Positions 2-44,675 of a DNA stretch of 64,000 nucleotides are shown here, piece after piece. This DNA comes from Candidatus Latescibacterota bacterium. Its GTDB lineage: Bacteria > Latescibacterota > UBA2968 > UBA8231. Position 1 is the first letter of the stretch; the number at the start of each line of letters is the position of its first letter. The notes under the pieces were generated by a model. It did not search any database, had not been told where the DNA came from, and was given only the letters and a program-made list of their open reading frames with translations. The translations under genes and the position numbers were made by a program. The DNA lies in contig CBDFJF010000001.1 of the NCBI GenBank assembly GCA_965248265.1, positions 320,001 through 384,000 of the forward strand. The letters are read 5' to 3'.

Positions 2-3000
2 CCGACGAATCCGCAGACGGTAGCTTCGGAGGTGGCGGACAATCCGATCTACGTCCACGTGGCAGATCCAGACGATGGTAGTGGCCTCGGCGCCGACGAC
101 AACAATGACGATGGCTTTCTGACCGGCAGTTGGGAGAGCGTGGGTTCGACGCTGGCCGACGACGACAAGTTCTTCGAGGGGTTGATCAACGAGGATTCGA
201 ATTCGACCAACGAATGGGGAGATGATGACGACAAGATCGGTTTGTTGCTCAAGTTGAACGTGCTGGGCGTCGATTCCACGACGAATCTGCAGGTTGTAAC
301 CAATAGCACCGCAAGTGCCGCTGGCACTGGATTCGGCGCACGCTCCGTACGCGTCGGATCGACACCGGTCGTCGGTTTTACCAGCGGAGCCTACTTTGCT
401 CTGGGAGCGAACATTGACATCGTGCCGTCGAACGCAGCACCCACAGTGGCTGTGCTGGAGCCGGATGGCACCGGTGACACCGCAGACACGTCCTTCCTCA
501 TCGAATACGACCTGAACGATGCCGACGACGATCTCGACGCGGGTATGACTGCCGCGCTTTATGCCTACCCTTCTGATAACCTGGGGACGGTGAGGGATAT
601 CCGGATTTTCGCGACACTCATCGCGGATGAGAATGATGTCTCGGCGAACAATGTCAACGGCACCGACGATCTGGAAGAAGGCAACAACCGGGACTATACC
701 TGGGATGACCCCTCTGACGCTCTGAAAAGCAACCTGTTCGCGTCCATCTTCCGCGTGCCGAGTGGCTCTTACTTCATCTATCTGGTCGCCGACGACGGCA
801 ACAACCCGCCGGTATTCGCCGTCAGCTCAGGCCCCCTCAGTATCGTACACAGCCCGATCGTTCAGCAGGTCGACCCGATTGTTGCTGACACCGTGGATTC
901 CGGAGTGCGTACCGGCCTCAAGGCGAATCCATACGACCTCGACTTCAGCGTCGTCGACCACGACAGCGATGCCCGCGTGCAGCTGTTCTACGCCTCGGTC
1001 AGCGGCATCACTTCCGTTTCCGTGACCGGTTCCTACCCGAATCAGCGTTTTGTCCTGGGAAAAAGCGTGGCGGGCACTCGCGGCATCGCCATCACGGATT
1101 CGACGATTTTGACGGACCTAGACAGGGAGTTTTCGTGGGATATCACCGATTCCGTCTTCGTAGCGGGAGACTCAGCCATCGTCGACGACGGGACCTACTT
1201 CCTCTATGCGGTGGCGACAGATTCGATAAACGTCAGCGTCGGCAACAGTGCCACGTCCCTGGTAGTCAAGCACTCGCCCTCGTTCGAATTCTTCGAGCCT
1301 GCTGAAGACACCCAACGCAGCATCGACTCGGGCTCCCAATCCGCTTACACGATCCAATGGCAAAAGGGACCCGGGGACGATGATTACGATGACAATGCCT
1401 CGATCGATCTGTACTTCACGACGGATGATCCGGCCGTCGTCGATCATTCGACTGAGGCAGGCGCAACGACGGACGCTCTGATCAACGATGCCGACACCAA
1501 AACGATCGTCACCGGCCTTACCGAAGATGGGGATGGATCCTCTGACATGTACGTGTGGAATCTGCAAACGCCACCCAATAACATCCCCGTGAGCGGCGCG
1601 CAGGTGTGGGTTTACGCTGTCGCGATCGGTGCCACGGATACGACCGTGGCCCGGGGCGGTTCAGTCACCATCACGCACACGCCATACATGCGGTTGAATA
1701 CCCGGATGCCGGAGATCAACCAGGGTGATGTCATCAGGCTCGAATGGGAGGCCTACATGGTGGACGACGGATCCAGCACGGACGATGCCTACATCCGACT
1801 GTACGCGTCAACGAGCAGTGGCTTGACCACGGCGCAGGACCTCGAGGCCAACCTGGTAGGAGAGGGTGGGGCTGATAACACGTATATCATCAACAGTAGT
1901 GACGGCACTGCCACCGGGACGATCACGTCGATCCGTGAGACGGACGGAGATGCCTTCTCCTGGGATACCAACACCAGCACATTCACCCTGGATGAGGGAA
2001 ACTACGCCATCTACGCTGCCATCAGTGGGGATGCCACGTTCGTCGACAACACCCGGGGCAGAGTCAGTGAGTCTTCCAACCTGCTATCTGTGAAGACCAG
2101 TCAGGGCACTACGCCCAACATGGTTGTCAGCCCTAACGAGCTTATCGCCAGTGTCGGTGATACATTGACATTCGAGGTGCTCGTACAGACCGACGGCATC
2201 CCCGCCACTATGGTGTCGGCGATCATGGATTTTCCAACGAATCTCGATACGGTCAGCTTCAGTCCATTCACCGATCTGGGTGAGGTGTTCTCCGGAGGCT
2301 CCGTGATCGAGGACACGACCATTGGCAATCAACTTCGCTATACGAGAACGGGTACCGCAGAGATCATCGGAACCACGGAAGATCCAGCGCGCCTGGCCAG
2401 TTTCCAACTGGTCGTCACCAGCCCCTTCAACGGGAAAACCAGCATTTCGTTCGACGATACAGAGGCGGCCCTCAGCATCGTCGGCCGCTCGGCTCCTCTG
2501 ACTGAGACCACGGGGATGTCTGCCTTTGACGCTGAGATTCAATCGGCTCCGCGGGGGCGCATTCTGGCCACGGTCCTGCTCGAGGGACGCGCGCCCCCAG
2601 TGGGTAGTGGCAATCACAAGACTCGACTGGACGTGCACCTTCGTGTGCCCGGTAGTACGATAGACATCGGCGATGCGATATTCACCGCAGCCAACGACGA
2701 CGTGCCGGGTACGGCTGACACCGTAGAAGTTGAGACCTCGTCGGCCGGAGGACTGGCCCTCTTGAGCGTGCCGCAGGGTCGTTACGTCCTCACCTTCAAG
2801 GATTCGAGCCATCTGAGTGGTCGCACGGATACGCTGACGATTCGCAACGGTGAGACGATCGTGTTGAGCTCCGCAGAAGGGTTGTTCGCATCCGACATTC
2901 GGGGCGATGCTTCGTTCCTGCTCAGTCAGGACGGCAAACTGCTCAAGGCCGGTGATGCAACCGGGGACAACGAGATCGACGAGGACGACGTCAACGCCAT

Positions 3001-3913
3001 TGACGCGGCATGGGGTACCGATAACACGAAATCGGGTTTCGCGCGTGCCGACCTCAACAACGACGAGCGTGTCGGAGTCGAGGATCTCACAGTGACGACG
3101 TCCAACATCAGCAATAGCACTGGTTTTGGAGCGCCGCCTGTATTCAAGCGCATGGGGCCGGGCCCCCAGTCTGTCGACGCACCTGCCTTGGCACTGTCCG
3201 CTCCCGGTTTCAAAGGCCAGTGGCGCAGCGGATCCCAGATCGAGTTGCTGTTTACGGCGACCGGGCTGCGCGATCTAGCCGGGTACAGCCTGGAATTGGA
3301 TTATGATCCACTCGAGATGGATCTGGTGCGACCGCCCACTACCAGCAGCACCGGACGGCACATCTTCGCGTCCAATCCGAATGGCTATTTCGAGCATCTC
3401 AGTATCGAGCCGGGACGCGTGGCGGTGGCAGCAGCACGCCTGGGGACTGACTGGACTGCCGATGGCGACGGGGAAGTCATGCGCCTGCGCATCAGGTTGA
3501 ATCGGGATGGTTTCCCCGAGTCGCTGCGCGTTCGCGAAGGAAAACTGTTGAGCGCAGCCTACGAGGCCACCGAGTTGAACCTCGCCGGCGATCCCTTCCT
3601 GCTGGCACTGCCCAGGGAGTTGGCGGTGCGGCAGAATTACCCCAATCCGTTCAATCCGACGACGACGATTCCGTTCGAAGTCCCGGCGGCTCAATCTTCG
3701 GCGACGGTGGCTGTGCCCGTATCAGTCGAGATTTTCAATACACTCGGACAGCTGGTTCGTACCCTGGTGCGGGAGGACCTGCACCCGGGATACCACCGTG
3801 CGTCCTGGGACGGCCGCAACGGCTCCGGACACGGCGTCGCCACCGGGATGTATCTGTACCGCGTGCGGGCTGGAGAGCTGAGCAAGTCGGGCAGGATGAC
3901 GCTGATCAAGTAG
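2..3913 (+). CDS. Large acidic secreted/surface protein (5'-truncated by window edge): Ig-like repeats, two cohesin-like domains, dockerin-like EF-hand pair, C-terminal FlgD-Ig/T9SS type A sorting domain
   Basis: Frame is open from the window start. About four repeats of the type 'I.W/Y...D.DD.A.I.LY...WD...G.Y.IYAVA'. Dockerin-like GDATGDNEIDEDD...ADLNNDERVGVEDL. C-terminus QNYPNPFNPTTTI...WDGRNGSG...ATGMYLYRV...RMTLIK. Confidence 0.85.
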   Translation, partial: PTNPQTVASEVADNPIYVHVADPDDGSGLGADDNNDDGFLTGSWESVGSTLADDDKFFEGLINEDSNSTNEWGDDDDKIGLLLKLNVLGVDSTTNLQVVTNSTASAAGTGFGARSVRVGSTPVVGFTSGAYFALGANIDIVPSNAAPTVAVLEPDGTGDTADTSFLIEYDLNDADDDLDAGMTAALYAYPSDNLGTVRDIRIFATLIADENDVSANNVNGTDDLEEGNNRDYTWDDPSDALKSNLFASIFRVPSGSYFIYLVADDGNNPPVFAVSSGPLSIVHSPIVQQVDPIVADTVDSGVRTGLKANPYDLDFSVVDHDSDARVQLFYASVSGITSVSVTGSYPNQRFVLGKSVAGTRGIAITDSTILTDLDREFSWDITDSVFVAGDSAIVDDGTYFLYAVATDSINVSVGNSATSLVVKHSPSFEFFEPAEDTQRSIDSGSQSAYTIQWQKGPGDDDYDDNASIDLYFTTDDPAVVDHSTEAGATTDALINDADTKTIVTGLTEDGDGSSDMYVWNLQTPPNNIPVSGAQVWVYAVAIGATDTTVARGGSVTITHTPYMRLNTRMPEINQGDVIRLEWEAYMVDDGSSTDDAYIRLYASTSSGLTTAQDLEANLVGEGGADNTYIINSSDGTATGTITSIRETDGDAFSWDTNTSTFTLDEGNYAIYAAISGDATFVDNTRGRVSESSNLLSVKTSQGTTPNMVVSPNELIASVGDTLTFEVLVQTDGIPATMVSAIMDFPTNLDTVSFSPFTDLGEVFSGGSVIEDTTIGNQLRYTRTGTAEIIGTTEDPARLASFQLVVTSPFNGKTSISFDDTEAALSIVGRSAPLTETTGMSAFDAEIQSAPRGRILATVLLEGRAPPVGSGNHKTRLDVHLRVPGSTIDIGDAIFTAANDDVPGTADTVEVETSSAGGLALLSVPQGRYVLTFKDSSHLSGRTDTLTIRNGETIVLSSAEGLFASDIRGDASFLLSQDGKLLKAGDATGDNEIDEDDVNAIDAAWGTDNTKSGFARADLNNDERVGVEDLTVTTSNISNSTGFGAPPVFKRMGPGPQSVDAPALALSAPGFKGQWRSGSQIELLFTATGLRDLAGYSLELDYDPLEMDLVRPPTTSSTGRHIFASNPNGYFEHLSIEPGRVAVAAARLGTDWTADGDGEVMRLRIRLNRDGFPESLRVREGKLLSAAYEATELNLAGDPFLLALPRELAVRQNYPNPFNPTTTIPFEVPAAQSSATVAVPVSVEIFNTLGQLVRTLVREDLHPGYHRASWDGRNGSGHGVATGMYLYRVRAGELSKSGRMTLIK

Positions 3914-12862: not shown

Positions 12863-14791
12863 TTACTGCAGAAACAAGATCTTCCTGGCAGAAACCCGAT
12901 GGTTGGTCTCCAGCCTGGCTACGTAGACCCCCGTGCTAACCTCACTGCCGGCGTCACTGGTTCCATCCCAAACGACCTCACTGTAACCGGCGAGAGTCCG
13001 TTCCTGAAACAGGGTGCGTACGCTCTGCCCCGCAAGATTGTAGATGGTCAGGGAGGCGTCCCGGGTGGAGACCGGTACCAGCAAAGGGATTACCGTGGCG
13101 CCATTGAACGGATTCGGCCGGTTTGGCAGGAGCTCAAATTCGGCTGGCACCGGCCGCGCATCCGTCTCCTCCACCGCCGTCATACGGCTGATGTTTTGTG
13201 GTTGCCCGCTGACATCCATGCGTTCGATGACGGCCGCAGCCGGTTGGCTGAAGGGACGTGGGTCCTCGGGGTCTGGCTGGACGAACGGATTGCTGCGGAT
13301 CTCACGCCCGTCGGCCAGCGTGACGACGAGGACGATGTCTTCCAGGCGAGGATCATCCGGGTTGAAGTTCGGGCATTCCAACCGGGCCGTCGCCCGGCGC
13401 ACATTATCGACCCCATCCAGATCCGGATTGAACCCGAACACCGGGTCCAGGGTCATCTCGTCTGCCGACAGCGTCGTAAAGAGCCGTGTCAGGTAGTCGT
13501 ACTCGGAAAACAGTTGCTGACCCTTGCGCAACGGTGTGACGACAACCTCGTCTAGTGAGACGACAAAGGCCCCGGCGTCGAACTCGATGTCGTCGTTGTA
13601 CTGGCGGTAGGATTCCATGTTGTTGTAGAAGGATTGCTCGGCCATCGCCAGAAGGGTCCCGTTCTCTTTCGCCTCCCGATAGGCTTCGACGTCCCCTCTG
13701 AAAACGATTTCGAGCGCTCCCTCTTCCAGGACGATCTGCGGTATCGGAATATGGCGGCGCAGCAGGGCCTGCATCTGTGAGTCTGCCCGTGGAAATCCCT
13801 GCCGCAACAGTTGGTCGACGAACCCCTGGGGATCCTTCGCCTGGCTGAGGGTCTCCAGATCGTAGCGATCCTCCCAGAAGAGGCGCTCGTCCATGATCGC
13901 CGGTGACCCCGCGTAGTCGGTTGCAAAGGACTGTCCACCCGCTTCATTGGCAGCCTGGGTGACGACGTCGGCATAGTTGAAGCCGCCGTTGAACCAGTCG
14001 ATGAGCGCCTCGTTGATCTGTACGTGCAGGTAATTCGTGGGTACGGCGCGTGCCGGGCCCAGGACCCAGGCGAGAACGCCGAGATCAGGTTCCGTGGCAA
14101 CGGCTGTAAGGCGGATAGGTATCATCGGGTGGTCGCCGGCGTAGGTCATGGCGATGGGTTGCAGATCGCCGATCTCCCTGTCTGCCGACAGGCGCAGGGC
14201 CAAGAACAAGAATCCATCCTCGACGTACGGAGCCAACAGCTCAGCCCCCAGGTCACCGAGTTCATATCCGTTTGACGTCAGCCAATCCAGGATGGCCTGG
14301 GCATCGTCGGAGCGGATGACGGCCGTTTGATAGGGGCCGACGCGGTCTTCACTGACGACATCCACATCGCGTTGGACGACAACCGCATCCTCCTCCGGGC
14401 CAAGGGTCCAGACGCGGAAGTCACATTCGCTTTCTTCCGGCCAGTCGAGGACGAAGGCTGGTTGAGTGGCGAACTGCAACTGACGGAAAATCTCGTTGTG
14501 GCTGACGGACAGTTCGGGCACGGATGGAACCGGCAGCACCCAGGCGAAATCCTCAGCTGTGCCGGCAAACTGGATCTGCACGTGAACACTTACTTGCCCG
14601 TCCTCAGCGATGAACAGAATCCGCTCGCTGGTCTGGTTCATTGGCAGGTTGGAACAGAAGAACCCGCCGCAAGACCACGACGGTGACGTGGCGCCGTCGA
14701 AGAGAAAGAAAAGCAAGAGAACGGCAGCCGAGCAGCCGAACCGATCAATCAACCGTGTACGTTCAATTGGGACTCGATGTTTGCCTCGCAT
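12863..14791 (-). CDS. DUF2330-domain secreted protein with C-terminal FlgD-Ig/T9SS-A sorting domain
   Basis: Signal peptide then CGGFFC..QTSERILF, FAWVLPVP, PMIPIRLTAVA. C-terminus NRPNPFNG...WDGTSDAG..STGVY..RKILFLQ. Confidence 0.85.
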   Translation of the reverse strand: MRGKHRVPIERTRLIDRFGCSAAVLLLFFLFDGATSPSWSCGGFFCSNLPMNQTSERILFIAEDGQVSVHVQIQFAGTAEDFAWVLPVPSVPELSVSHNEIFRQLQFATQPAFVLDWPEESECDFRVWTLGPEEDAVVVQRDVDVVSEDRVGPYQTAVIRSDDAQAILDWLTSNGYELGDLGAELLAPYVEDGFLFLALRLSADREIGDLQPIAMTYAGDHPMIPIRLTAVATEPDLGVLAWVLGPARAVPTNYLHVQINEALIDWFNGGFNYADVVTQAANEAGGQSFATDYAGSPAIMDERLFWEDRYDLETLSQAKDPQGFVDQLLRQGFPRADSQMQALLRRHIPIPQIVLEEGALEIVFRGDVEAYREAKENGTLLAMAEQSFYNNMESYRQYNDDIEFDAGAFVVSLDEVVVTPLRKGQQLFSEYDYLTRLFTTLSADEMTLDPVFGFNPDLDGVDNVRRATARLECPNFNPDDPRLEDIVLVVTLADGREIRSNPFVQPDPEDPRPFSQPAAAVIERMDVSGQPQNISRMTAVEETDARPVPAEFELLPNRPNPFNGATVIPLLVPVSTRDASLTIYNLAGQSVRTLFQERTLAGYSEVVWDGTSDAGSEVSTGVYVARLETNHRVSARKILFLQ

Positions 14792-26021: not shown

Positions 26022-27815
26022 TCACCGTCGATCGAGCGCATTCCGAATCCCGTCGCGCAGCTCCTGAAAAGCGACCGGCTTAACGATGACGGCCTCCACA
26101 CGGTCGATGAGCTCCGGGTCCGGTTCATGGCCCGTGAGCAGGACAATCGAAACCTTGTCGTCTCGTCTTCGGAGTTCTTCGAGGACCTCCTCTCCCGACA
26201 TCCTGGGCATCGACAAATCGAGCAGGACCAGATCGATGACGCCCCGTTCGCTGTCGAAGGTGCTGAGGCCCTCCTGTCCGTCAGCGCTCTCAAGCACGGT
26301 GTACCCGGCCCGCTCCAACATCAAGGCGATCGTCCTGCGGACGGTAGTCTCGTCCTCCACCAGCAGAATCGTCTCTGTGTTGCTGGATACGGTGCGCCGA
26401 GGAGTTTCCTGGTTTTGAACGGCGGGCACGGCCGGGGGCGAAACCGGCAGATATACGGTGAAGGTGCTGCCCTCCCCAGGCTTGCTCTCGCAGTCGATCC
26501 AGCCCCCATGCTGCTCGACAATGCCATAAGCCGTCGACAGACCAAGTCCAGTGCCCTTACCGACCTCTTTGGTGGTGAAGAACGGCTCAAATGCCCGGCG
26601 CTGGGTCTCGTCGTCCATCCCGACGCCCTGGTCCGAGATCCGCGCGCGGATGAATTCGCCATTGCGCTCTCGGTTACCGGCATCGCCGTCGCTCGGCAAC
26701 GTCTGGACATCGACTTCGATTCCCATGGAAGGAGAAGGATGCCGACTCTCGGCGATGGCGTCCCGGGCATTGAGGCACAGGTTCAGGACCACCTGCTCGA
26801 TCTGCTCCGGATGGCCACAGACCGGCAGCAATGAACCCGTCTCTAAACGGATGGTGATTTTGGGATCGAACGTCGAGATACAGACTCGGTAGACGCCCTC
26901 GACTACGCTCGCGAAGTCGAAGACGACCCTGCCCTCGTCGACGGGTTTGCGTGTCAGGACCAGCAACTGCTTGACGATCGCCGCACCTCTAAGACTCATG
27001 TCCAGGGCGTCACCCAGGTAGCGCTGTGTGTCTGCGGGAGATCCGGAGGCAGCCAATTCGAGGCTGCCGTGAATTCCCTGAAGCAGGTTGTTGAAGTTGT
27101 GCGCCACGCCGGCGCCGAGTTGGCCAATCGCCTCCATCTTCTGCGACTGTCGAAGTCGCTCTTCCAGGCGCTTGCTGGTAGTGATGTCGATGACGATGAC
27201 TTCAACGGCGCTGACCTCGCCATCCGCATCGAACACGGGAAAGCAGGAGCCGGTAGCCCACTTGACCTCCCCACTCTTGTGGATCAAACGGAATCCCTGG
27301 TTCGTCGTGGTTTCACCCCGCGCCGCGTTCCTGAATGCACTCAGGCCGCCGCGGTGATCTTCTCCCCGCGTGAGGCGCCAACCAATCCGGCTGTCCGAGT
27401 AGAATTCCTCCGGGGTGTATCCAGTCAGTTCCTGCATCTTCGGACTGACGTAAACGTAGCGGCCGGACAGGTCCATCAACATCACGCCCAGACTGGGCAT
27501 TTCGACCAGATTCCGGTAGCGTGCCTCCGAGGCCTCGAGCCTTCCAAGGTCAAGCAATCGTTGCCGCGTCTCTTCATTGAGCTCTCGCCAGCGGCGAAAG
27601 CTGAACACGCCAAGGGCAATCGCAAGCACAACGAGACCAGTCACAAGCTCCTCGAGCGGCCAACGGTTCTGCGTTTGAGTCAGTGACGCCAGGCCGTCGA
27701 AGAGGTCGAAGTAGGAAACCAGGCAGAAGGCAGCGGCACAGCCCAACAGAGTGAGCACGAGATCCTTCTTCGCGCTCGAAGCGAAGTTCGCGAAACTAGC
27801 GTGGCGCTCGCTCAC
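26022..27815 (-). CDS. Membrane-bound hybrid sensor histidine kinase (2 TM, PAS, HisKA, HATPase, REC)
   Basis: QSQKMEAIGQLGAGVAHNFNNLL, NLCLNARDA, FEPFFTTK..GKGTGLGL, LLVEDE..LLDLSMP. Confidence 0.93.
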   Translation of the reverse strand: MSERHASFANFASSAKKDLVLTLLGCAAAFCLVSYFDLFDGLASLTQTQNRWPLEELVTGLVVLAIALGVFSFRRWRELNEETRQRLLDLGRLEASEARYRNLVEMPSLGVMLMDLSGRYVYVSPKMQELTGYTPEEFYSDSRIGWRLTRGEDHRGGLSAFRNAARGETTTNQGFRLIHKSGEVKWATGSCFPVFDADGEVSAVEVIVIDITTSKRLEERLRQSQKMEAIGQLGAGVAHNFNNLLQGIHGSLELAASGSPADTQRYLGDALDMSLRGAAIVKQLLVLTRKPVDEGRVVFDFASVVEGVYRVCISTFDPKITIRLETGSLLPVCGHPEQIEQVVLNLCLNARDAIAESRHPSPSMGIEVDVQTLPSDGDAGNRERNGEFIRARISDQGVGMDDETQRRAFEPFFTTKEVGKGTGLGLSTAYGIVEQHGGWIDCESKPGEGSTFTVYLPVSPPAVPAVQNQETPRRTVSSNTETILLVEDETTVRRTIALMLERAGYTVLESADGQEGLSTFDSERGVIDLVLLDLSMPRMSGEEVLEELRRRDDKVSIVLLTGHEPDPELIDRVEAVIVKPVAFQELRDGIRNALDRR

Positions 27816-37200: not shown

Positions 37201-37619
37201 AACCAGGTTCCGGTCAACACATAAGGTCTACAACGATGCCCCCAACACTCTTGTCACTTCTCGCGATGTGACTTCCTCACAGAAGGGGTCTTGATCCCAT
37301 ATGCCGGCAGGCTTTTCACAAAAGAATCCCCGATTATGCCGAAAACTGCAATCGCGTTCTTGTTCAACTTGTAAACTGAAGGACCGATAAGGGGTCACTG
37401 TCAATAGACTATATCGGTTGAGGCTTGGAGTCGAGTGGGATGGGAGCTTGTCTGGGTGCGAATGGGTATTCGGCGGCATTGCGAACATGGATTCAGGGCG
37501 GGCTGGTATTTCAATGCTCGAACACGTGGAGGAAGGTCTCAAGTCCCTCGGCCTGAAAGGACGCTCCGTCACCTGCTTTCTTCCGTGTCTGAGTGCGCAA
37601 ACCACGGATCGAGGTCAGC

Positions 37620-40600
37620 TCACACTGAGGTCTTCCTCACCGATTCCAGCACGCTCAACACCGAGTCCATGTCGAACGAATCGACGTGGGGCTTGAGCAG
37701 TGCGGCCAGCTTCGCTTCATCCTCGCTCGCACACGCCATCTCCGCAATCACCAAGCGCAGTTCGGTTACATTTGCCACCTCAGCGGCTGCCCGCACACGC
37801 TCGTGCAGGTCAGCAGAAACTGTAGTCGATTCCAAGACCGCCGGTCCGGCCTCTTCGGGCGCGGCCTGATTCGCCGTTTCCTCAAATGCGACACCCAGCA
37901 TCTGCTCGAGGCACTGACAAATTTGGCCAACCCGTACCGGTTTGCCGATGAACTCGTCGAAGCCAGCCGACAGGTAGTGTTGCCGCTCGTGTTCCAGAGT
38001 TGAAGCGGATACGGCGACAATCTTGAGAGCCAGGTCCGGGTCCGCTACGAGTTTCCGCATAGCCTCCATGCCATCCATCTCGGGCATGCGGATGTCCATG
38101 AATACGATGTCCGGTCGCTCACGTCGACTGATCTCGAGCGCTTCGATACCGTTGACGGCGGAGTGCACTTCGACACCGATCGCCCCCAGCAACTGCTCCA
38201 GAATATCCCGGTTCTCGGGCACGTCATCAGCCACCAACGCTTTCACCTGACAGCCGCCAGCCAACCGCCTGACGCGGCCATAGTCTTCTTTGTGCTCGCG
38301 CACTCCTCCTGCCGCGGTCGAAAGCGGCAGAGTGAAGTAAAAGCGTGTGCCTTCGCGAGACGATTCAAACTCCAGTTCCCCACCCATCAAGTGTACAAGA
38401 CGGCGCGAGACGGCCAGGCCCAAGCCTGTCCCTCCGGTGTCCCTGCCTGCCTCTCCTTGCTGGAACGGCTGGTACAGTGTTTTCTGTTCCTCTTCCGAGA
38501 TCCCTCTCCCGCTATCGATAACCTCGAAGAGATAAGTCTCACCTCCAACCTGCGCGACGCGCAGCGTTACGTCTCCTTCCTGCGTGAACTTCACCGCGTT
38601 GCCCAACAGGTTGATCAGCACCTGCATCAACTTACTCTCATCGCCATATACCAGAACGTGTGACTCTTTCAAACTCTTGAGCTTCCAGCCCAGCGCCTGC
38701 TCGCGGCATCGTAGCTGGAACATCTCTGACACACTCTGCAGTAACCTTACCAGGTCGAAGTCGACGGCGTGAACATCCATGCGGCCGGCTTCGATCTTGG
38801 AGATATCCAGTACCTCGTTGATCAACCTGAGCAGGTGATCACCACTCGCCTGGATTGTTTCCACAGCCTGTCGATGGTTGTCCACCAACTCCGGACTGCT
38901 TTGCATGATCTGCGCATACCCGATGATGGCATTCATCGGGGTCCGGATCTCATGGCTGATATTGGCCAGAAATTGCGACTTCGCCTGGCTGGCCAGTTCG
39001 GCGGCCTCCTTGGCCTCCAGCAGCCCGGCGTTGGACTGTTCGAGCTCGGCGATGAGGCGATTCTGGGCATCCGCGGCCTCGGTGAAGTCCCGGTAACGTG
39101 CGTGCGCGAGGTCGACGACTTCGACGAAATCCTCTATGCGGGCGATCTCCCAGTTGCTGAAGGGCTCTGCTTGTCCACGCCAACCGCGGCGCACACAGAT
39201 GACGCCTGTTTCGAATGGAACGTCCAGAGCCCACACCGTGCCTGATGCGGCCAGTCCCACGTCAGCAGTACCCGAAAGCGGCGCCCACACCTCTTTCTCT
39301 CGAGGATCCATCTGTCGTGGTTTGGGTACGCCCGTGCGTGCCTCTGCCAGGAAACGTCCAACCTCATCCGGGTCCGAGATCGTGGACCTCTGCAACGCGC
39401 CCGCCGAGTCGACCTGCAACGCCTCGACGTGCGAGGTACCCTTCGGCGTGCACAGGGTGAGCTGGTCGAAATGCAGGCCGACGACCAGCAGTTCGTCCGC
39501 AATCTGGGCAAGCACTGTCTGCAGGTGCTCCGGCTGTTTCATATCGAGCACGGTTTGCCGTACGCGCTCCCGTGCTTCCTCGATGGTGAGGCTGCGTAGA
39601 TGCCCAGCGACCTCCTCGTCCTGAGTCTGAACGCTTTCCAGGACGTGGCTGGCGACGGAACGTCCAGCAACATTGAGGACCTCGGCAAGCACCCGCGGTC
39701 CGCCGACCTCCTGGTGTGCGCCCGGCACATTGCGAAGGGTGTGTTCGAGGTCTTCCTCGATATCCTTCAATACTGAGGGAGTCACGTTTTCCATGGTCGC
39801 CATCCGGTACGACACATCAGCCTGCAGGCGTGGTGAGAGCTGGGCCAGCATGGCTCCAGACTGTCGCGGATCCACTTGCGAGAGGATGAGAGCGATGGTT
39901 TGGGGGTGCTCGCGTGAGATGTGGAGGGCTACGTGCTCAGGGCTGATGTTCTTGAGGATGTAGGTGCCCGATGACGCGGTGCTGGTAACGCGCGCAAAGA
40001 TCTCATCCGCCTTGCGCCTTCCGACAGCATGCTCCAGAGCGTTCCGGGTGAACTCGGTGCCTCCGCTTGCCATCCAATCGCCAGAGCGCAGACGCCCAAC
40101 GAACTCGTCGAGCTCACGGGCGTGAATCTCGGCGGACACGTTCTGTAACGCCGCCATGGACTGGGAGACCACTTCAATCTCGTAGTCGGACAGGAGCTTG
40201 AGGATCTTTCCAGTCAACTGCTCACCGAGCCCGACCAGGACGATGGCAACCTTGACCATTGACGGCAGTTCCTCTGAGGGTGAATCAGCGTTTTCCTCGA
40301 GGGCCATGGTGCGAACGATCCGAGCAGCGTCAGCGATGTGGTGGGCAACAAACTCTCTCGGCGTCAGTGTCGCCTGGTCGATCTCCTGCCGGGGGGTGGG
40401 TGGCGCTGGTTCGCCTGCAGTGCCGCCGGTCGATTCGTCGGACAGCGGTTCCGTGTCGGCAGCTGGCGGCGGGTGTAATGCGTGTTCGGCAACGCCGGGC
40501 ACGAACCTGGGTGCAGGCTGGAGCCTGGGGGAGCCCGGTTGTCGGCTCGCGGCGAGCAGTGAGGCGGACAGGCTCCATGCCGGTTCCGGGTAGGGTGGGG

Positions 40601-40715
40601 GAAGTGGCATGGCGTCCACCTCCGTCAGGGTCAGTGGCAGCCAGTCGGCGACGGTCGCCCGCGCTGTCCTGCCAGCGGCGAGTCCCAGGATCCGTGGCTC
40701 AGTCTTGGGAGTCAT
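37620..40715 (-). CDS. FliG(N+M+ARM-C)::GAF-like::histidine kinase::receiver fusion (soluble hybrid kinase)
   Basis: [10 protein letters not shown]...[10 protein letters not shown]...[11 protein letters not shown]...[13 protein letters not shown] is Fli[26 protein letters not shown] and GGTGLGL mark the kinase. VADD...FMDIRMP...GKP is REC. Confidence 0.9.
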
Positions 40716-41791
40716 TGACGTTTCTCCTCACCCGCCGCGATCTCGACCGCGCTTTGCGCCAACCGAAAGCCGATGTGCTCGTTCGCATGGTCCTGCGGCG
40801 CGCTGTTGCGATGGATCGTCCTCACGTTGGGACGGGTCTCGGCATAAAAACCGCCCCGGATTACTCGCTCTTCGCCCGTGTCGGGTCCCTGTGGGTCCAG
40901 GTCAGGACTGTATGGGTAGTAGTTCGACTGGTAGAAGTCAGCGCACCACTCGTAGGCGTTGCCGGCCATGTCCCAGGCTCCGTATGGGCTACGGCCAAGG
41001 GGAAACTCATCGACCGGGGTTGTCGTGCCCACGAGATTGTTGGAATTACATCGTTCGCCATCGACGAAGTGATTCCCCCACGGGTAGAGGCGTCCGTCGT
41101 TGCCGCGGGCTGCCTTCTCCCATTCCGCTTCGGTCGGCAGACGTTTGCCGCGCCATCGGGCGTACTCATTCGCGTCTTCCCATGAGACGTTGACGACCGG
41201 ATGCCTCGACGTGCCCACGGGGTATGTTCCGTCGTGCCAGGCAGGCGGGGCGCGGTGTGAAGTGGCGTTCACGAACTCCTGGTAGCTGTGGTTGGTCACG
41301 GGATAGGCGTCGATGTAGTAGGGTGACATATCTAGTGTGTGAGTGGGTCGCTCGTTGTCCGGGCTGTCGCCTTCGTTGCTACCCATGACGAAGGAGCCGC
41401 CCGGAACGGCTACCATGCCCATCACGTCTTCCATCAATTCTGGTCCGCGCTCGATGGCTTCATAGGCGATGGTTTCGCGAAAGGCTCGAGTGATGCCAGA
41501 TGCCTCCGGCGCAGCGATCTGCTTGATCCTGCAACTGATCAGGTCGCTGCCGACGACGATGTCCCCATGGGCGAACAAGCGATCGTTTACTCGTACATCG
41601 TAGGATCGTCCTACGCGCTTGTTGAGCGTGATAAGGCCGCCGGGCTGCAGCTGCGCAAAAGCGTTCAGGCTCATCTGTAAGCGGCCGAGCTCGACCCTTA
41701 CTTCAAAGCGGATATCTCTGAGATGAGCCAGATTGCCGATTTCACGATCGACCATCTCTCTGGCGTCCGCTTCCGTAATCTTGCTGTTCAT
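40712..41791 (-). CDS. FliN/SPOA domain fused to a formylglycine-generating-enzyme-like (SUMF1) domain
   Basis: [12 protein letters not shown]...[22 protein letters not shown] is [46 protein letters not shown] and IGFR are FGE-like. Confidence 0.9.
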
Positions 41792-42093
41792 CAGACGGCC
41801 CCATCCCTTACGATTTCGGTTACGCGCACCCCGAAGTTCTCGTCTACGGTAACCACCTCTCCCCGCGCTCGGACTCTGCCGTTGAGCAGGATGTCGATCG
41901 GCTCGCCCACGGCTCGTTCAAGCTCGAACAGGGAACTGTCCCCAACCTGCAGCAGTTGATCCAGCGTACAGTTCGTTCGTCCCAGCTCGAAGGCAACGGT
42001 CACTTCCACATCGCGCGTGAAATCTTCGACCGCTGACTCCTCTTTCCGCGGGGGTTGTCTTTGCGTTGGAGTATGCTTGTCTTTGCCAGCCAT
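41791..42093 (-). CDS. fliN: Flagellar motor switch protein FliN-like
   Basis: DVEVTVAFELGRT...GEPIDILLNG...RGEVVTVDENFGVRVTEI. GGAG RBS. Confidence 0.9.
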   Translation of the reverse strand: MAGKDKHTPTQRQPPRKEESAVEDFTRDVEVTVAFELGRTNCTLDQLLQVGDSSLFELERAVGEPIDILLNGRVRARGEVVTVDENFGVRVTEIVRDGAV

Positions 42094-42128: not shown

Positions 42129-43094
42129 TCACTCGTTAGCGAGTGGCTGTAGCGCCTCGGGAATCTTCCCCACGGCTTTCACGGCGATGCGTCCGTTGTC
42201 CGTGGCGAACGGTCGCACGTAGAACTTGGGCAATCCTCCCACGCGCAGGATGAGAGGTTCGGTTGTCTGCGTGTCGCAGCAGATGATATCATCGACCTGC
42301 AGGCTGTCTACGTCGGCCAGGGGCAAACGCTTGCGCGCCATCTCGACGGTGAGCGGCAGTTTCACGGGGCCCAATGCAGCGCGGCTGCGCCGAGTCGCCT
42401 CCTCCTGTTCGCGGCGCCCACGGCGCACGTGGGTCTGCTGGCCAAGGAGCGGCAGGATCGACTCCAGGGTGAGGTAGGGGTAGCAGAGGCTCACCAGTCC
42501 GGATGCAAGGGGCGAATTCACCTCGAAACCGAGCACGACGACAATCTCGGCGGCGGCGGTCGTGTCCATGAACTCCGGGTTCGTTTCCAGTTCGATATCT
42601 GAGATTTCCACCGGCAGGATCGGGTGCCAGGTGTGCTCCAGATTCTCCACCACGCGCTTGACGAACTTGGCGATCACACCCATCTCGATCTGTGACATCT
42701 GTCGCTCATCGACGCCCTCCGACGAACCCTTCCCTCCGAACACGCGGTCGACGGCGGAAAAAACGAAAGGCATGGAAAAATCGAGAATGGCCTGGCCATT
42801 CGTCGGACCGAGCATGAACTGATAGGAACAGGACGGGTTTGACAAGGAGGTGATGAAATCAGCGTAGGTTTTCTGGGCAATGAAGGCTGTGTCAACGTCG
42901 ACGACGTCACGCATGGACGCGGAAAACGTCGAACTCAGCTGCCGCGCGAAGTGGTCATGTAAATTCTCCAGGGTGCGTAACTGATCCGTGTTGACCTGGG
43001 CGGGGTGCCTGAAATCGTAGGTAGCAACGATCCCATGCGATTCAGTTTCTGTCGGTGTACCATCGGTCACTGCTGTATTTGGAGTGTCACTCAT
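42129..43094 (-). CDS. fliM: Flagellar motor switch protein FliM-like, lacking the N-terminal CheY-binding peptide
   Basis: YDFRHP...LRTLENLHDHFAR, VDRVFGGKG, ETNPEF, LCYPYLTLE, C-terminal SPOA domain. Confidence 0.9.
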   Translation of the reverse strand: MSDTPNTAVTDGTPTETESHGIVATYDFRHPAQVNTDQLRTLENLHDHFARQLSSTFSASMRDVVDVDTAFIAQKTYADFITSLSNPSCSYQFMLGPTNGQAILDFSMPFVFSAVDRVFGGKGSSEGVDERQMSQIEMGVIAKFVKRVVENLEHTWHPILPVEISDIELETNPEFMDTTAAAEIVVVLGFEVNSPLASGLVSLCYPYLTLESILPLLGQQTHVRRGRREQEEATRRSRAALGPVKLPLTVEMARKRLPLADVDSLQVDDIICCDTQTTEPLILRVGGLPKFYVRPFATDNGRIAVKAVGKIPEALQPLANE

Positions 43095-44646
43095 GCCTTG
43101 CTCCTCCTGGCGTGGTTTCTGCAGCCGTCCTGTGCAAGTCCGCAGGGTCAACCTCGTTGCGCAACACCCGGTACAACCGGTTTCGGCTCGTTCCCAGCTG
43201 ACGCGCCGCCTTCGTCACGTTGCCATCGCTCTGCTGCATGGCCACGCCTACCACCCACTTCTCCGCGCACCGCACAGCCCGATCCAGGTCCAGCGGCAAG
43301 TCGGGAGCCCCCGGACTCCTGTCACCTGAATCTCCACCTTCGCCGTCCGTCGTCGCTCGCGGAACGCGCAAGAAGTGCAAGTGATGCGGCAGTACTTCAA
43401 CGCCCCCACTCTCGATCAAGGCGCGCTCCATGAGGTTTTTCAGCTCGCGCACGTTTCCCGGAAACCGATATCGTTGCAGAATTTCCACCGCATCCAAGCT
43501 GAGATCCGGTACCTCGCGCCCCATCTCTTCCGCGAACAGCTTGAGGAAGTGGCGCGCCAGAATCGGAATGTCCTCCGTGCGCTCTCGCAGCGGCGGTGAG
43601 GTGACCGTGAACCGCGCCAGCCGGTAGTACAGATCCTGCCGAAAGCTCTTCGCCTGGAGCCGCTGTTGCAGCTCGACGTTTGTCGCCGCCAGCACCCGCA
43701 CCGCCACCTTCTTCCCCTCGGTTGCTCCGATTCGCCACACAACGCCGTCCTCCAGAACCCGCAGTAGCTTGCTCTGCAGCTCCAGTGGCATGTCGGCGAT
43801 TTCGTCCAGAAACAGCGTGCCGCCGTCGGCGATCTCGAAGAATCCGAGCCGGTCGTCACTGGCACCTGTGAATGATCCCCGGTTATGTCCGAACAGGGCC
43901 GATTCGACAAGGTCCGCCGGAATGGCCGCGCAGTTTACGGGCACGAAGGGCCCATCCTGCCTTGCCCCACCGAAGTGGATGGCCCGTGCGATCAGCTCCT
44001 TGCCGGTTCCACTCTCACCAGTGATCAGCACCGAGGTCATCGGGCTGTCCTGCATCAGATGGATCTCTTTGAAGATTCTCTGGATGGTAGCGCTCTGTCC
44101 TACGAAATCCTCCAACCCCCAGCGTACAGCTTCGCGCTCGGAAATCATCGATAGACGTCCCTTGAGCGCCTTCCGCTGGACGATCTCAAGCTCCAGCTCT
44201 CGATTGGTCTCTGCGAGTGCCGCATTCTTCCTCTGCAGTTCCGTCGCCAGCCGGCTCAGTCGCACGTGCGTTTCGACTCGAGAGAGAACCTCCTCTTCCT
44301 GGAATGGCTTGGTGATGTAGTCGACCCCACCGGCCCTGAAACCGGCAATGACATCCTCTTTTCGGTCTCGGCCGGTCAGGAAGATGACGGGAATCCCGGC
44401 GGTCTCTTCAGTTTGCTTGAGCCGTCTGCACACTTCGTATCCATCCATCTCGGGCATGACCACATCCAGCAGTACGATGTCCGGCTGGCCCCGTACCGCT
44501 ATATGGAGAGCATTCTGTCCTCTGGTTGCTACCATTACGCTATTATTCGCTGCCTCGAGAAGCTCGAGGAGGACTTTGAGGTTCGTCGGATTGTCATCGA
44601 CAATGAGGATTCTCGCTCCCCGCGGAGTGGATTGTGGCTCAACCAT
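43087..44646 (-). CDS. NtrC-family sigma-54-dependent response regulator (REC, coiled coil, AAA+, Fis HTH)
   Basis: ILIVDD..LLDVVMP, GESGTGKE, GSFTGA, LFLDEI, FRQDLYYRL, PGNVRELKN, NVTKAARQLGTSR. GGAGGA RBS before ATG 44646. Confidence 0.94.
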   Translation of the reverse strand: MVEPQSTPRGARILIVDDNPTNLKVLLELLEAANNSVMVATRGQNALHIAVRGQPDIVLLDVVMPEMDGYEVCRRLKQTEETAGIPVIFLTGRDRKEDVIAGFRAGGVDYITKPFQEEEVLSRVETHVRLSRLATELQRKNAALAETNRELELEIVQRKALKGRLSMISEREAVRWGLEDFVGQSATIQRIFKEIHLMQDSPMTSVLITGESGTGKELIARAIHFGGARQDGPFVPVNCAAIPADLVESALFGHNRGSFTGASDDRLGFFEIADGGTLFLDEIADMPLELQSKLLRVLEDGVVWRIGATEGKKVAVRVLAATNVELQQRLQAKSFRQDLYYRLARFTVTSPPLRERTEDIPILARHFLKLFAEEMGREVPDLSLDAVEILQRYRFPGNVRELKNLMERALIESGGVEVLPHHLHFLRVPRATTDGEGGDSGDRSPGAPDLPLDLDRAVRCAEKWVVGVAMQQSDGNVTKAARQLGTSRNRLYRVLRNEVDPADLHRTAAETTPGGARHE

Positions 44647-44659
44647 CTTTATCCTCCAA

Positions 44660-44675
44660 TGCAATGCCTGTACCA
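44660..44675 (-). promoter_or_regulatory. Candidate sigma-54 -24/-12 promoter TGGTACAGGCATTGCA
   Basis: Correct GG-N10-GC spacing and near-consensus sequence. Caveat: the predicted start site falls only a few nt before the ATG. Confidence 0.55.

Follow-up and report, generated by a model that had tools for sequence, protein, structure and literature searches.

A FliG-kinase fusion of Latescibacterota suggests that parts of the flagellar motor switch are reused as a sensor

What could a histidine kinase read out through a protein of the flagellar rotor? This question is raised by a gene on a stretch of 64,000 nucleotides from a Candidatus Latescibacterota bacterium (contig CBDFJF010000001.1, positions 320,001 to 384,000), which is referred to as the window in the following and to which all plain coordinates apply. 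The gene, located at 37620..40715 on the minus strand (-) like every part of it and of its operon given below, encodes a protein of 1031 amino acids, here called FliG-kinase, in which a FliF_C-like peptide, a FliG without its torque domain, a GAF-like domain, a long helix, HisKA, HATPase_c, a receiver (REC) and a four-helix tail follow upon each other; its extent is given by the open frame, the Pfam domains and an architecture common to 18 homologous clusters. FliG is not known in any other role than that of the rotor protein on which the stator exerts its torque. The stacking of its ARM-M and ARM-C parts and its MFxF hinge are central to models of motor assembly and switching. The reading favoured here, to which we assign a probability of roughly 0.55, is that FliG-kinase belongs to a soluble assembly resembling the switch complex and independent of the MS ring, the state of which would set the kinase output to a co-encoded receiver protein.

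The sensor side of the protein is a FliG up to the hinge. A reading of the locus made from the sequence alone, without database searches (the sequence-only reading), had proposed a FliG cut at the MFxF hinge and continued by a kinase, and this was confirmed by Pfam as well as by alignments to PDB chains and to paralogs. The FliG_N domain (residues 150-248, 39972..40268) is recognised by Pfam PF14842 at E 2.5e-28 and in PDB alignments, and the FliG_M domain (residues 259-331, 39723..39941) by PF14841 at E 3e-26, the latter with an invariant EHPQT from E269 to T273. They are followed by an invariant pair of glycines (G338 G339) and ARM-C (together residues 338-377, 39585..39704), which stops where the MFxF motif would start, as judged from PDB and paralog alignments. 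We take EHPQT to be the EHPQR-type FliM-binding motif and the glycine pair to be the Gly-Gly linker, names that are applied here to FliG_M. In phmmer searches against PDB chains, residues 153-377 align to FliG of Vibrio, H. pylori, Salmonella, Aquifex and T. maritima, the top match being a FliF-FliG fusion chain (8z4d, E 2.5e-24), and the alignment ends at residue 377, which corresponds to '...AGAIKEMM' of H. pylori FliG. The positions proposed from the letters, EHPQ at 39900-39911 and a junction near 39588, were right, the junction lying at about 39585-39588.

At the hinge itself, the fusion reads 'LRSLT' and continues with 'IEEARE', as opposed to 'VRNLMFTF' or 'MFVF' in seven of its eight FliG paralogs within this genome, which run into FliG_C; the eighth, paralog B, stops at the very position where the fusion leaves FliG homology. 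In a regular-expression census of 153 fetched proteins bearing EHPQ, none of the kinase fusions featured MF.F downstream of this motif. The Pfam row for FliG_C contains no accepted stretch (0) in FliG-kinase and overlies the M domain, and thus does not represent a C-terminal domain. Against the NCBIfam equivalog TIGR00207, the protein scores 172.1 bits at a cut-off of 226.7 and covers model positions 7-235 of 338. By its hinge, its missing C-terminal domain and its score below the cut-off alike, FliG-kinase is not a FliG. In the monomer model, one unbroken helix (residues 367-390) joins the last ARM-C helix to the GAF-like domain. A transmembrane segment, which the sequence-only reading had not seen either, is not indicated, given that no 19-residue window reaches a Kyte-Doolittle value of 1.6 in FliG-kinase or in the four upstream operon proteins.

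Beyond the junction, the succession of GAF-like segment, coiled coil, HisKA, HATPase and REC, which had been anticipated from the letters, is borne out by Pfam, by the structural model and by Foldseek. The GAF-like domain (residues 378-530, 39126..39584) carries no Pfam GAF signature, nor does any Pfam family match this stretch even at E 10, and its assignment is based on an AlphaFold2 model and Foldseek. With 17 aligned sequences as input, residues 375-565 were modelled at a predicted local distance difference test score (pLDDT) of 92.3 and a predicted template-modelling score (pTM) of 0.86, and all 6 Foldseek matches that reach E <= 1e-3 (TMq 0.46-0.53) belong to GAF domains, among them those of cyanobacteriochrome kinases, CyaB2 and PDE6; the top matches as a whole, likewise all to GAF domains, have a best E of 2.1e-4 and span TMq 0.45-0.56. 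In the ESM Atlas, feature matches of this part to GAF clusters reached 0.82-0.84 and thus stayed under the lead level of 0.9. The domain is followed by a long signalling helix into the DHp domain (residues 531-577, 38985..39125; helices 531-563 and 565-605 in the model), in which 'ARYRDF..A.EAQ.RLIAELE' is conserved. HisKA, i.e. the DHp domain (residues 578-644, 38784..38984; Pfam E 6e-22), contains the invariant phospho-acceptor H588 in SHEIRTP, and HATPase_c (residues 691-799, 38319..38645; Pfam E 4.7e-29) shows N and G box residues that are 90-100% conserved, namely N702, N706, D734, G736, G738 and G761-G767. In the receiver (residues 827-935, 37911..38237; Pfam Response_reg E 8.5e-23), D830, D831, D874 and K925 are invariant.

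The protein ends in a conserved four-helix tail (residues 965-1031, 37623..37823) with invariant T984, L986, L1003 and L1007, the helices of which (968-979, 983-996, 998-1012 and 1016-1024; pLDDT of the blocks 78-89) are placed where unorthodox kinases carry their Hpt domain. An identification of this tail as Hpt was rejected, since it has no conserved histidine among the aligned family members and neither a Pfam nor a PDB sequence match. In all features tested, the Hpt excepted, FliG-kinase qualifies as a hybrid HisKA kinase. Judged by the invariance of the catalytic and receiver residues and of EHPQT, the kinase is apparently active, and selection appears to act on the face of FliG_M that binds FliM.

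The fusion belongs to a protein family, as defined by a word-indexed homolog search in which 21 of 8000 scored candidates reached E <= 1e-3. The combination of FliG_M with HisKA, for which a query had been suggested from the sequence, is present together with FliG_N in 18 protein clusters at 37-53% identity, two of which are labelled Latescibacteria or Latescibacterota at their source. In the alignment of 17 of these members (P0005 was omitted as cut short), EHPQT, G338 G339, H588, D830/D831/D874/K925 and most residues of the ATP lid are invariant. A full scan of 1.84 billion representatives produced 4385 matches at E <= 1e-3, only six of which match through the GAF-like part. Within the phylum, this part is matched at E <= 1e-5 in 9 of 168 genomes, and a strong match in a FliG-bearing frame occurs in the genome of the window (G000) and in three relatives with an ortholog (G150, G098 and G094). 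The same three relatives emerged when 185,579 species genomes were scanned with a pattern, two of them labelled Latescibacterota and one 'uncultured Gemmatimonadetes'. Moreover, 10 weak matches of this middle domain (E 1e-5 to 1e-10) reside in other long open reading frames of the phylum (L013-L022).

The gene order is conserved along with the fusion. On a contig of 2.15 Mb, G098 encodes an NtrC-type regulator, FliM, FliN, a second FliN without the FGE-type domain described below, and FliG-kinase, the regulator occupying the same position as its counterpart in the window and being 64.8% identical to it. G094 features FliM, FliN, FliN-FGE, FliG-kinase and a REC-SpoIIE protein, and the 5-kb contig of G150 holds FliG-kinase and REC-SpoIIE only. 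The adjacent regulator is therefore of the NtrC type in two genomes (G000 and G098) and a REC-PP2C phosphatase, REC-SpoIIE, in the other two (G094 and G150). The receiver of the NtrC-type protein of the window shares 51-56% identity with those of the PP2C regulators, which suggests a single cognate receiver whose outputs have been exchanged. The ortholog of G094 (L024:8543-11719) has its frame split into pieces of 752 and 269 amino acids inside the catalytic domain; an error of the assembly may account for this, or the gene may be a pseudogene. With regard to a frameshift at the junction of the window gene, the stretch 37600-40800 is covered by contigs from four runs of a single sample, in which 0 differences and 0 gaps were seen; this agreement is not independent, because the sample may be the source of this very assembly. 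Given 18 clusters and orthologs in three other genomes, the fusion is not an assembly artefact.

The part of FliG-kinase that lies upstream of FliG_N had escaped the sequence-only reading, which confined the gene to 37620-40259. Its start is at 40715, and the additional 152 N-terminal residues contain conserved features. The first is an N-terminal motif, 'RILG...W.P...P..YP' (residues 7-45, 40581..40697), which was recognised from conserved columns of the family alignment and has no Pfam match even at E 10; the corresponding regular expression matches 26 of 153 fetched FliG-like proteins, and the motif is present in the kinase family, in paralog B and in other extended FliGs. A low-complexity linker of variable length (residues 57-113, 40377..40547) follows, which is gapped and unconserved in the alignment and falls below a pLDDT of 50 in the whole-protein model. 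The second conserved feature, immediately ahead of FliG_N, is a homolog of the FliF C-terminal peptide (residues 114-143, 40287..40376), identified by comparison with FliF, by its register in the alignment, by the model and by a complex prediction. It forms a two-helix segment with the family consensus 'RPEDAAKLVRTML.E', to be compared with the C-terminus '...RERPEDAAKLIRTMLVEDTA' of this genome's FliF.

The genome has a sole FliF (L028, 505 amino acids) with the C-terminal stretch '...ETPHDIILSRVQQMVRERPEDAAKLIRTMLVEDTA', and the homology is most evident in the family member P0003, where residues 142-184 are identical to FliF 462-504 at 30 of 43 positions (E 9e-16). In the window protein, which is in register with the family, the second helix is kept and the first has drifted. 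The model places the helices at 119-125 and 127-142 (pLDDT of the blocks 62/83/79), with flanks at 57-113 and 142-148 below 50; a Foldseek search with the whole-protein model returned kinase structures only and is uninformative on the docking of the peptide. The peptide is also carried by two further FliGs of the same genome, those of the modules A and B described below, and is not found in the FliGs of canonical length C, E and G; in the regular-expression census, the motif lay upstream in 28 of 153 EHPQ-bearing proteins. According to Lynch et al. 2017, as cited in PMC8956890, the FliF C-terminal peptide co-folds with FliG_N at the interface between MS ring and C ring. Since the C-terminus of FliF is the co-folding partner of FliG_N, the fusion bears the FliF ligand of its own FliG_N.

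FliG-kinase is encoded by the last gene of an operon, in which it is preceded by an NtrC-type regulator, FliM, FliN and a FliN with an additional domain of the formylglycine-generating enzyme (FGE) fold, termed FliN-FGE, in this order. The frames overlap or abut, the stop of FliN-FGE overlapping the start of FliG-kinase, and from this spacing the genes are presumably co-transcribed. The first gene (43087..44646) starts at ATG 44646 behind GGAGG and encodes a response regulator with REC, sigma-54 AAA+ and HTH_8 domains according to Pfam, which reaches 257 bits against FlgR of NCBIfam (cut-off 750). The FliM paralog (42129..43094, 321 amino acids from ATG 43094; Pfam FliM E 3.3e-46 plus FliMN_C) scores 209.1 against NCBIfam fliM at a cut-off of 219.6. 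Its translation passes directly from 'MSDTPNT...' to the conserved 'YDFRHP' core and is thus without the CheY-docking peptide LSQxEIDALL, which is also not found in the FliMs of the clusters A and B; the FliM of the flagellar cluster on contig C2, on the other hand, starts with 'MGDILSQDEIDALL' and has LSQDEIDALL. The usual way of docking CheY-P is thus closed to the operon FliM. Legible in the operon FliM is 'FGGKG', presumably the GGXG motif of the FliM middle domain.

The FliN paralog (41791..42093, 100 amino acids; Pfam FliMN_C E 5.7e-20) likewise stays below the cut-off of its namesake (81.4 bits against 84.05 for NCBIfam fliN) and matches SpaO_YscQ at 2.8e-19, again under cut-off. FliN-FGE (40712..41791, 359 amino acids) combines FliMN_C (residues 23-92, 1.1e-14) with FGE-sulfatase (residues 124-345, 2.6e-63). 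The top NCBIfam similarities of the latter domain, all under cut-off, are GldK/PorK, EgtB and SenA, and its only two cysteines stand in 'GERCNS' and 'YEWCADF'. True formylglycine-generating enzymes, as we assume, have their catalytic cysteine pair in a C-terminal stretch where FliN-FGE has none, and the domain probably serves for binding, not for catalysis. The whole operon is situated on contig C1 among housekeeping genes, i.e. those for Lon, GlnD, a glyoxalase and a BamB-like protein, with the flagellar cluster on C2.

A candidate sigma-54 promoter of the operon, TGGTAC-N5-TTGCA at 44660-44675(-), was rejected: it has one mismatch, lies on the ribosome-binding region 14 nucleotides before ATG 44646 and is attributed to chance, as 22 such matches with at most two mismatches occur throughout the window at 18 expected. 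The strict pattern has 30 matches genome-wide, none of which lies in the flagellar cluster or near the operon in this crude scan; a sigma-70-like site before the regulator (44730-44701) is as unproven as the sigma-54 site. The genome does encode rpoN. Elsewhere in the window, a second hybrid kinase (PAS, HATPase_c and REC; 597 amino acids; 26022-27815, (-)) is encoded 10 kb off, and two large proteins end in an FlgD Ig-like domain (32-3913 (+) and 12863-14791 (-)), one of them with DUF2330.

FliG-kinase is accompanied by numerous other switch proteins. The genome of 7.3 Mb contains nine frames with FliG_M, seven of which also have FliG_C, five strong FliM matches and one FliF; five further FliG_C matches fall in other open reading frames. 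In the flagellar cluster (C2:4100001-4120000, L028), which runs from FliF, FliH and FliI through FliK and FlgE to FliM and FliN, no fliG is located between fliF and fliH, and hence the motor FliG is supplied by a scattered paralog. Three canonical FliGs (C1:265586-266641, C1:1502012-1503193 and C1:710486-711529) show identities of 95-96% at the protein level and 85-89% at the DNA level, the underlying duplication spanning the gene only and not its flanks, and two more copies are about 70% identical (C1:384404-385618, just beyond the end of the window, and C2:750807-751862).

In addition, the genome harbours two extra clusters of FliN, FliN, FliG and FliM. Cluster A is found among metabolic genes and encodes a full FliG with the FliF-like peptide. 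In cluster B (C2:1677730-1681347; L027:6730-10347), an extracytoplasmic function (ECF) sigma factor and a zf-HC2 anti-sigma factor precede FliN, FliN', FliG and a FliM without the CheY-docking peptide, and the FliG of 363 amino acids consists of N and M domains only, ends at the hinge position of the kinase fusion and carries both the N-terminal motif and the FliF-like peptide. Throughout the phylum, FliG_M is detected in 72 of 168 genomes, many of them with 5-12 matches, and FliF in 62 of 168.

Several other architectures of switch proteins were encountered alongside. A REC-FliM-FliMN_C protein of 497 amino acids (G042, L035:732-2225) has a receiver in place of the CheY-docking peptide and is encoded beside a second FliM, a FliN, an FGE-FliG fusion (689 amino acids) and another FliN. 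FGE-FliG fusions, with or without FliG_C, were seen in G042, G039, G063, P0052 and P0099. FliM, FliN and a full FliG are united in one chain of 922-942 amino acids in G157 (L033:4422-7196), P0019 and P0020, and P0045 is a fusion of FliG (N, M and C) with a SpoIIE phosphatase. Other FliGs (among P0133, L036, L037, L034, L038 and L039) consist of N and M domains plus 445 unassigned residues or have 250-880 unassigned residues in front. The genome G099, a single contig from the genus of G098, features 12 FliG_M matches, FlhA at 7.8e-264 and a weak YscJ/FliF-like match of 251 amino acids; neither a kinase fusion, using the GAF-like query, nor a full FliF match was found in it. As proof of non-flagellar modules it was dropped, since the presence of FlhA leaves flagella possible.

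The cis FliF peptide, the FliM without the CheY motif, the sigma-54 regulator and the family of paralogs, none of which had been noticed from the letters alone, together point to a self-contained, switch-like module. In the favoured reading, FliG-kinase and the operon proteins FliM, FliN and FliN-FGE would form a free-standing assembly that resembles a switch complex. The cis copy of the FliF peptide, the original of which provides the missing part of the FliG_N fold at the MS ring, would free this assembly from that ring, while FliG_M would bind FliM through EHPQT and the stacking of ARM-M and ARM-C would link the FliG units. The signal, which we take to be the assembly or conformational state itself, would then travel from ARM-C via the continuous helix into the GAF-like domain and from there via the long signalling helix (helices 531-605) into DHp, thus setting autophosphorylation of H588; a ligand bound to the GAF-like or the FGE-fold domain may modulate the kinase as well. 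The phosphate would be transferred to D874, to the co-encoded receiver or to both, the latter belonging to the sigma-54 activator here and in G098 and to the REC-PP2C phosphatase in G094 and G150. That the switch or assembly state of FliG controls the kinase had already been proposed in the sequence-only reading. The anatomy on which this idea relied was right; the control as such may be regarded as fitted by the invariance of EHPQT and GG, by the modelled helix 367-390 and by the co-encoded FliM and FliN.

In favour of such a module speaks its sister B, which couples a truncated FliG, a FliM and two FliN to an ECF sigma/anti-sigma pair. Several observations weigh against it. All four genomes that bear the fusion also encode FliF, so that a link to the flagellum may exist. 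With 41-45% identity, the FliG part of FliG-kinase is closer to canonical paralogs of the motor type than to the FliGs of modules A and B (32%), and it could therefore still co-polymerise with the motor FliG. The FliF-like peptide of the window protein is more diverged than that of P0003, with 8 of 15 positions identical at E 0.08. A complex prediction of FliG_N (residues 146-250) with the cis peptide (103-145) lends weak support, with a median score of 0.48 versus 0.01 for the best of three controls, a pLDDT of the partner of at least 59 and runs agreeing in at least 72% of contacts. On calibration, the mark was reached by 58 of 80 solved complexes and by 2 of 110 mismatched pairs, and scores up to 0.60 comprised only 7 of those 80 complexes in addition to both passing mismatches; the pass may moreover be memory, because a like complex is already solved. 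In a FastTree phylogeny of 173 FliG N-M segments (14 of 187 proteins were dropped for want of a long match), the kinase fusions are distributed over three pure clades of 7, 6 and 4 members plus 3 singles, with deep support of 0-0.19. An Hpt that would complete the phosphorelay was not found by Pfam in FliG-kinase or in its operon, the rest of the genome not having been searched. Finally, by analogy, the sigma-54 activator partner is exactly that of flagellar checkpoint systems.

The last point leads to the alternative that survives best, namely a rotor-docked checkpoint of flagellar assembly, which we nevertheless consider rather unlikely. According to it, the FliG part resides in or beside the real C ring, held by FliM binding and by ARM stacking with the motor FliG, and reports the assembly of rotor and export gate to the sigma-54 activator of later flagellar genes; the fusion would hard-wire the contact that FlgS/FlgR, FlrB/FlrC and FleS/FleR make non-covalently. 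For the precedent of C. jejuni FlgS, PMC3760246 describes a kinase of the cytoplasm that depends on FliF, FliG and the export apparatus and was co-precipitated with both FliF and FliG, and PMC7064773 reports the same dependence for V. cholerae FlrBC and P. aeruginosa FleSR. The likeness would consist in a cytoplasmic kinase tied to FliF and FliG and paired with an NtrC-type sigma-54 activator, a pairing seen in G000 and G098, the adjacent regulator of G094 and G150 being REC-SpoIIE. The kinases of the FlgS type, however, are separate proteins without a FliG domain, whereas that of the window has FliG built in and comes with its own FliM and FliN. By analogy, FliG-kinase resembles the FlgS-type systems in logic, not in architecture.

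Besides the precedents, a checkpoint is favoured by the NtrC-type sigma-54 regulator that opens the operon in a genome with rpoN, by the occurrence of FliF in 4 of 4 fusion genomes, by the 41-45% identity to canonical paralogs and by a flagellar cluster that lacks its own fliG after fliF. On the contrary, a private FliM without the CheY peptide and two FliN would be superfluous for a simple docking sensor, and a FliF-like peptide in cis argues against docking to FliF. Next to the kinase, 2 of the 4 genomes encode a REC-PP2C phosphatase instead of a sigma-54 activator, and the operon is remote from the flagellar genes. In addition, none of the 30 genome matches to the strict sigma-54 pattern belongs to the flagellar cluster, crude as this test is.

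A second alternative, which we regard as improbable, would shift the sensing function to the GAF-like or the FGE-fold domain and leave to FliG, FliM and FliN, as a passive scaffold without a part in the signal, the task of clustering or localising a ligand-sensing kinase. GAF domains located directly N-terminal to DHp are common as kinase sensors; the fold matches include cyanobacteriochrome and phytochrome kinases as well as cyclic-nucleotide GAFs, the middle domain has weak relatives in other long open reading frames, and FGE-fold domains recur on these modules. Nevertheless, the strictly invariant residues of the sensor side are mostly found in the FliG part (EHPQT and GG), the cut lies exactly at the hinge and a single helix leads from ARM-C to the GAF-like domain. 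Moreover, the truncated sister FliG in the ECF-sigma module does without GAF and kinase, and the FGE part is absent in G098. An artefact or pseudogene, in which a chimeric assembly or a missed frameshift joined a fliG fragment to an unrelated kinase gene, is extremely improbable despite the broken frame of G094 and the origin of several family members from short metagenome contigs, in view of the open frame of 1031 amino acids, 18 clusters from several sources, the long contig of G098, invariant catalytic residues, a precise conserved junction and four run assemblies of one sample without differences.

Compared with known systems, the free-standing assembly favoured here would combine familiar parts in an unfamiliar way. 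FliG_N, FliG_M with EHPQ, the Gly-Gly linker and ARM-C are common to FliG (TIGR00207) and the fusion up to the hinge; the latter differs by the loss of MFxF and FliG_C and by the gain of a cis FliF peptide and 650 residues of kinase. With FliF-FliG fusions, be they engineered in Salmonella and Vibrio (PDB 8z4d) or natural (P0021), it shares a FliF C-terminus joined ahead of FliG_N, although the window gene retains only the last 30-40 FliF residues behind a disordered linker, without the membrane and ring-building part of FliF. To GAF-coupled and hybrid kinases it is linked by the GAF-like fold, the signalling helix and the order DHp-CA-REC, with the best structural matches to ShkA (1.1e-18), GacS and RetS and top NCBIfam similarities to TorS, BarA and LuxQ, all of them under cut-off. 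In contrast to these kinases, a rotor protein instead of a PAS, PHY or transmembrane sensor is situated upstream of the GAF-like domain, which has no Pfam GAF. A precedent for proteins of the FliM/FliN family in a non-flagellar cytoplasmic assembly is the SctQ/SctK sorting platform of injectisomes. Injectisomes are not known to possess a FliG homolog, and the role of their platform lies in secretion, not in two-component signalling. In the full-text literature searched, supplementary tables being outside its reach, there is no description of a FliG-kinase fusion or of a non-motor FliG/FliM/FliN module, and PMC4642947 does not mention a kinase or a fusion. By this measure, FliG-kinase is a two-component kinase whose type of input has no described precedent.

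Extending the free-standing assembly to its relatives, we tentatively raise the possibility of a whole family of switch-derived cytoplasmic 'signalosomes' in Latescibacterota-type bacteria, in which ring or arc assemblies would drive kinases, PP2C phosphatases and ECF sigma/anti-sigma pairs. Such assemblies would be built from FliGs with their own FliF peptide, from FliMs that are devoid of the CheY peptide or fused to a receiver, and from pairs of FliN, and their all-or-none cooperative switching would be passed to signalling outputs instead of the stator. The window gene would be the clearest case, its kinase replacing the torque domain at the hinge that moves in motor switching.

FliG-kinase suggests that parts of the motor switch are reused as a sensor, and this would be of consequence beyond the locus itself. 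It would give a direct phosphorylation read-out of the conformational or assembly states of FliG and FliM, and may serve as a natural 'Rosetta stone' for the contact between kinase and rotor that was proposed in checkpoints of the FlgS type. If the reading holds true away from the flagellum, it would be the first reuse of the switch complex as a signalling scaffold within the literature searched, and it would account for the retention of as many as 12 FliG_M matches in a single genome of this lineage.

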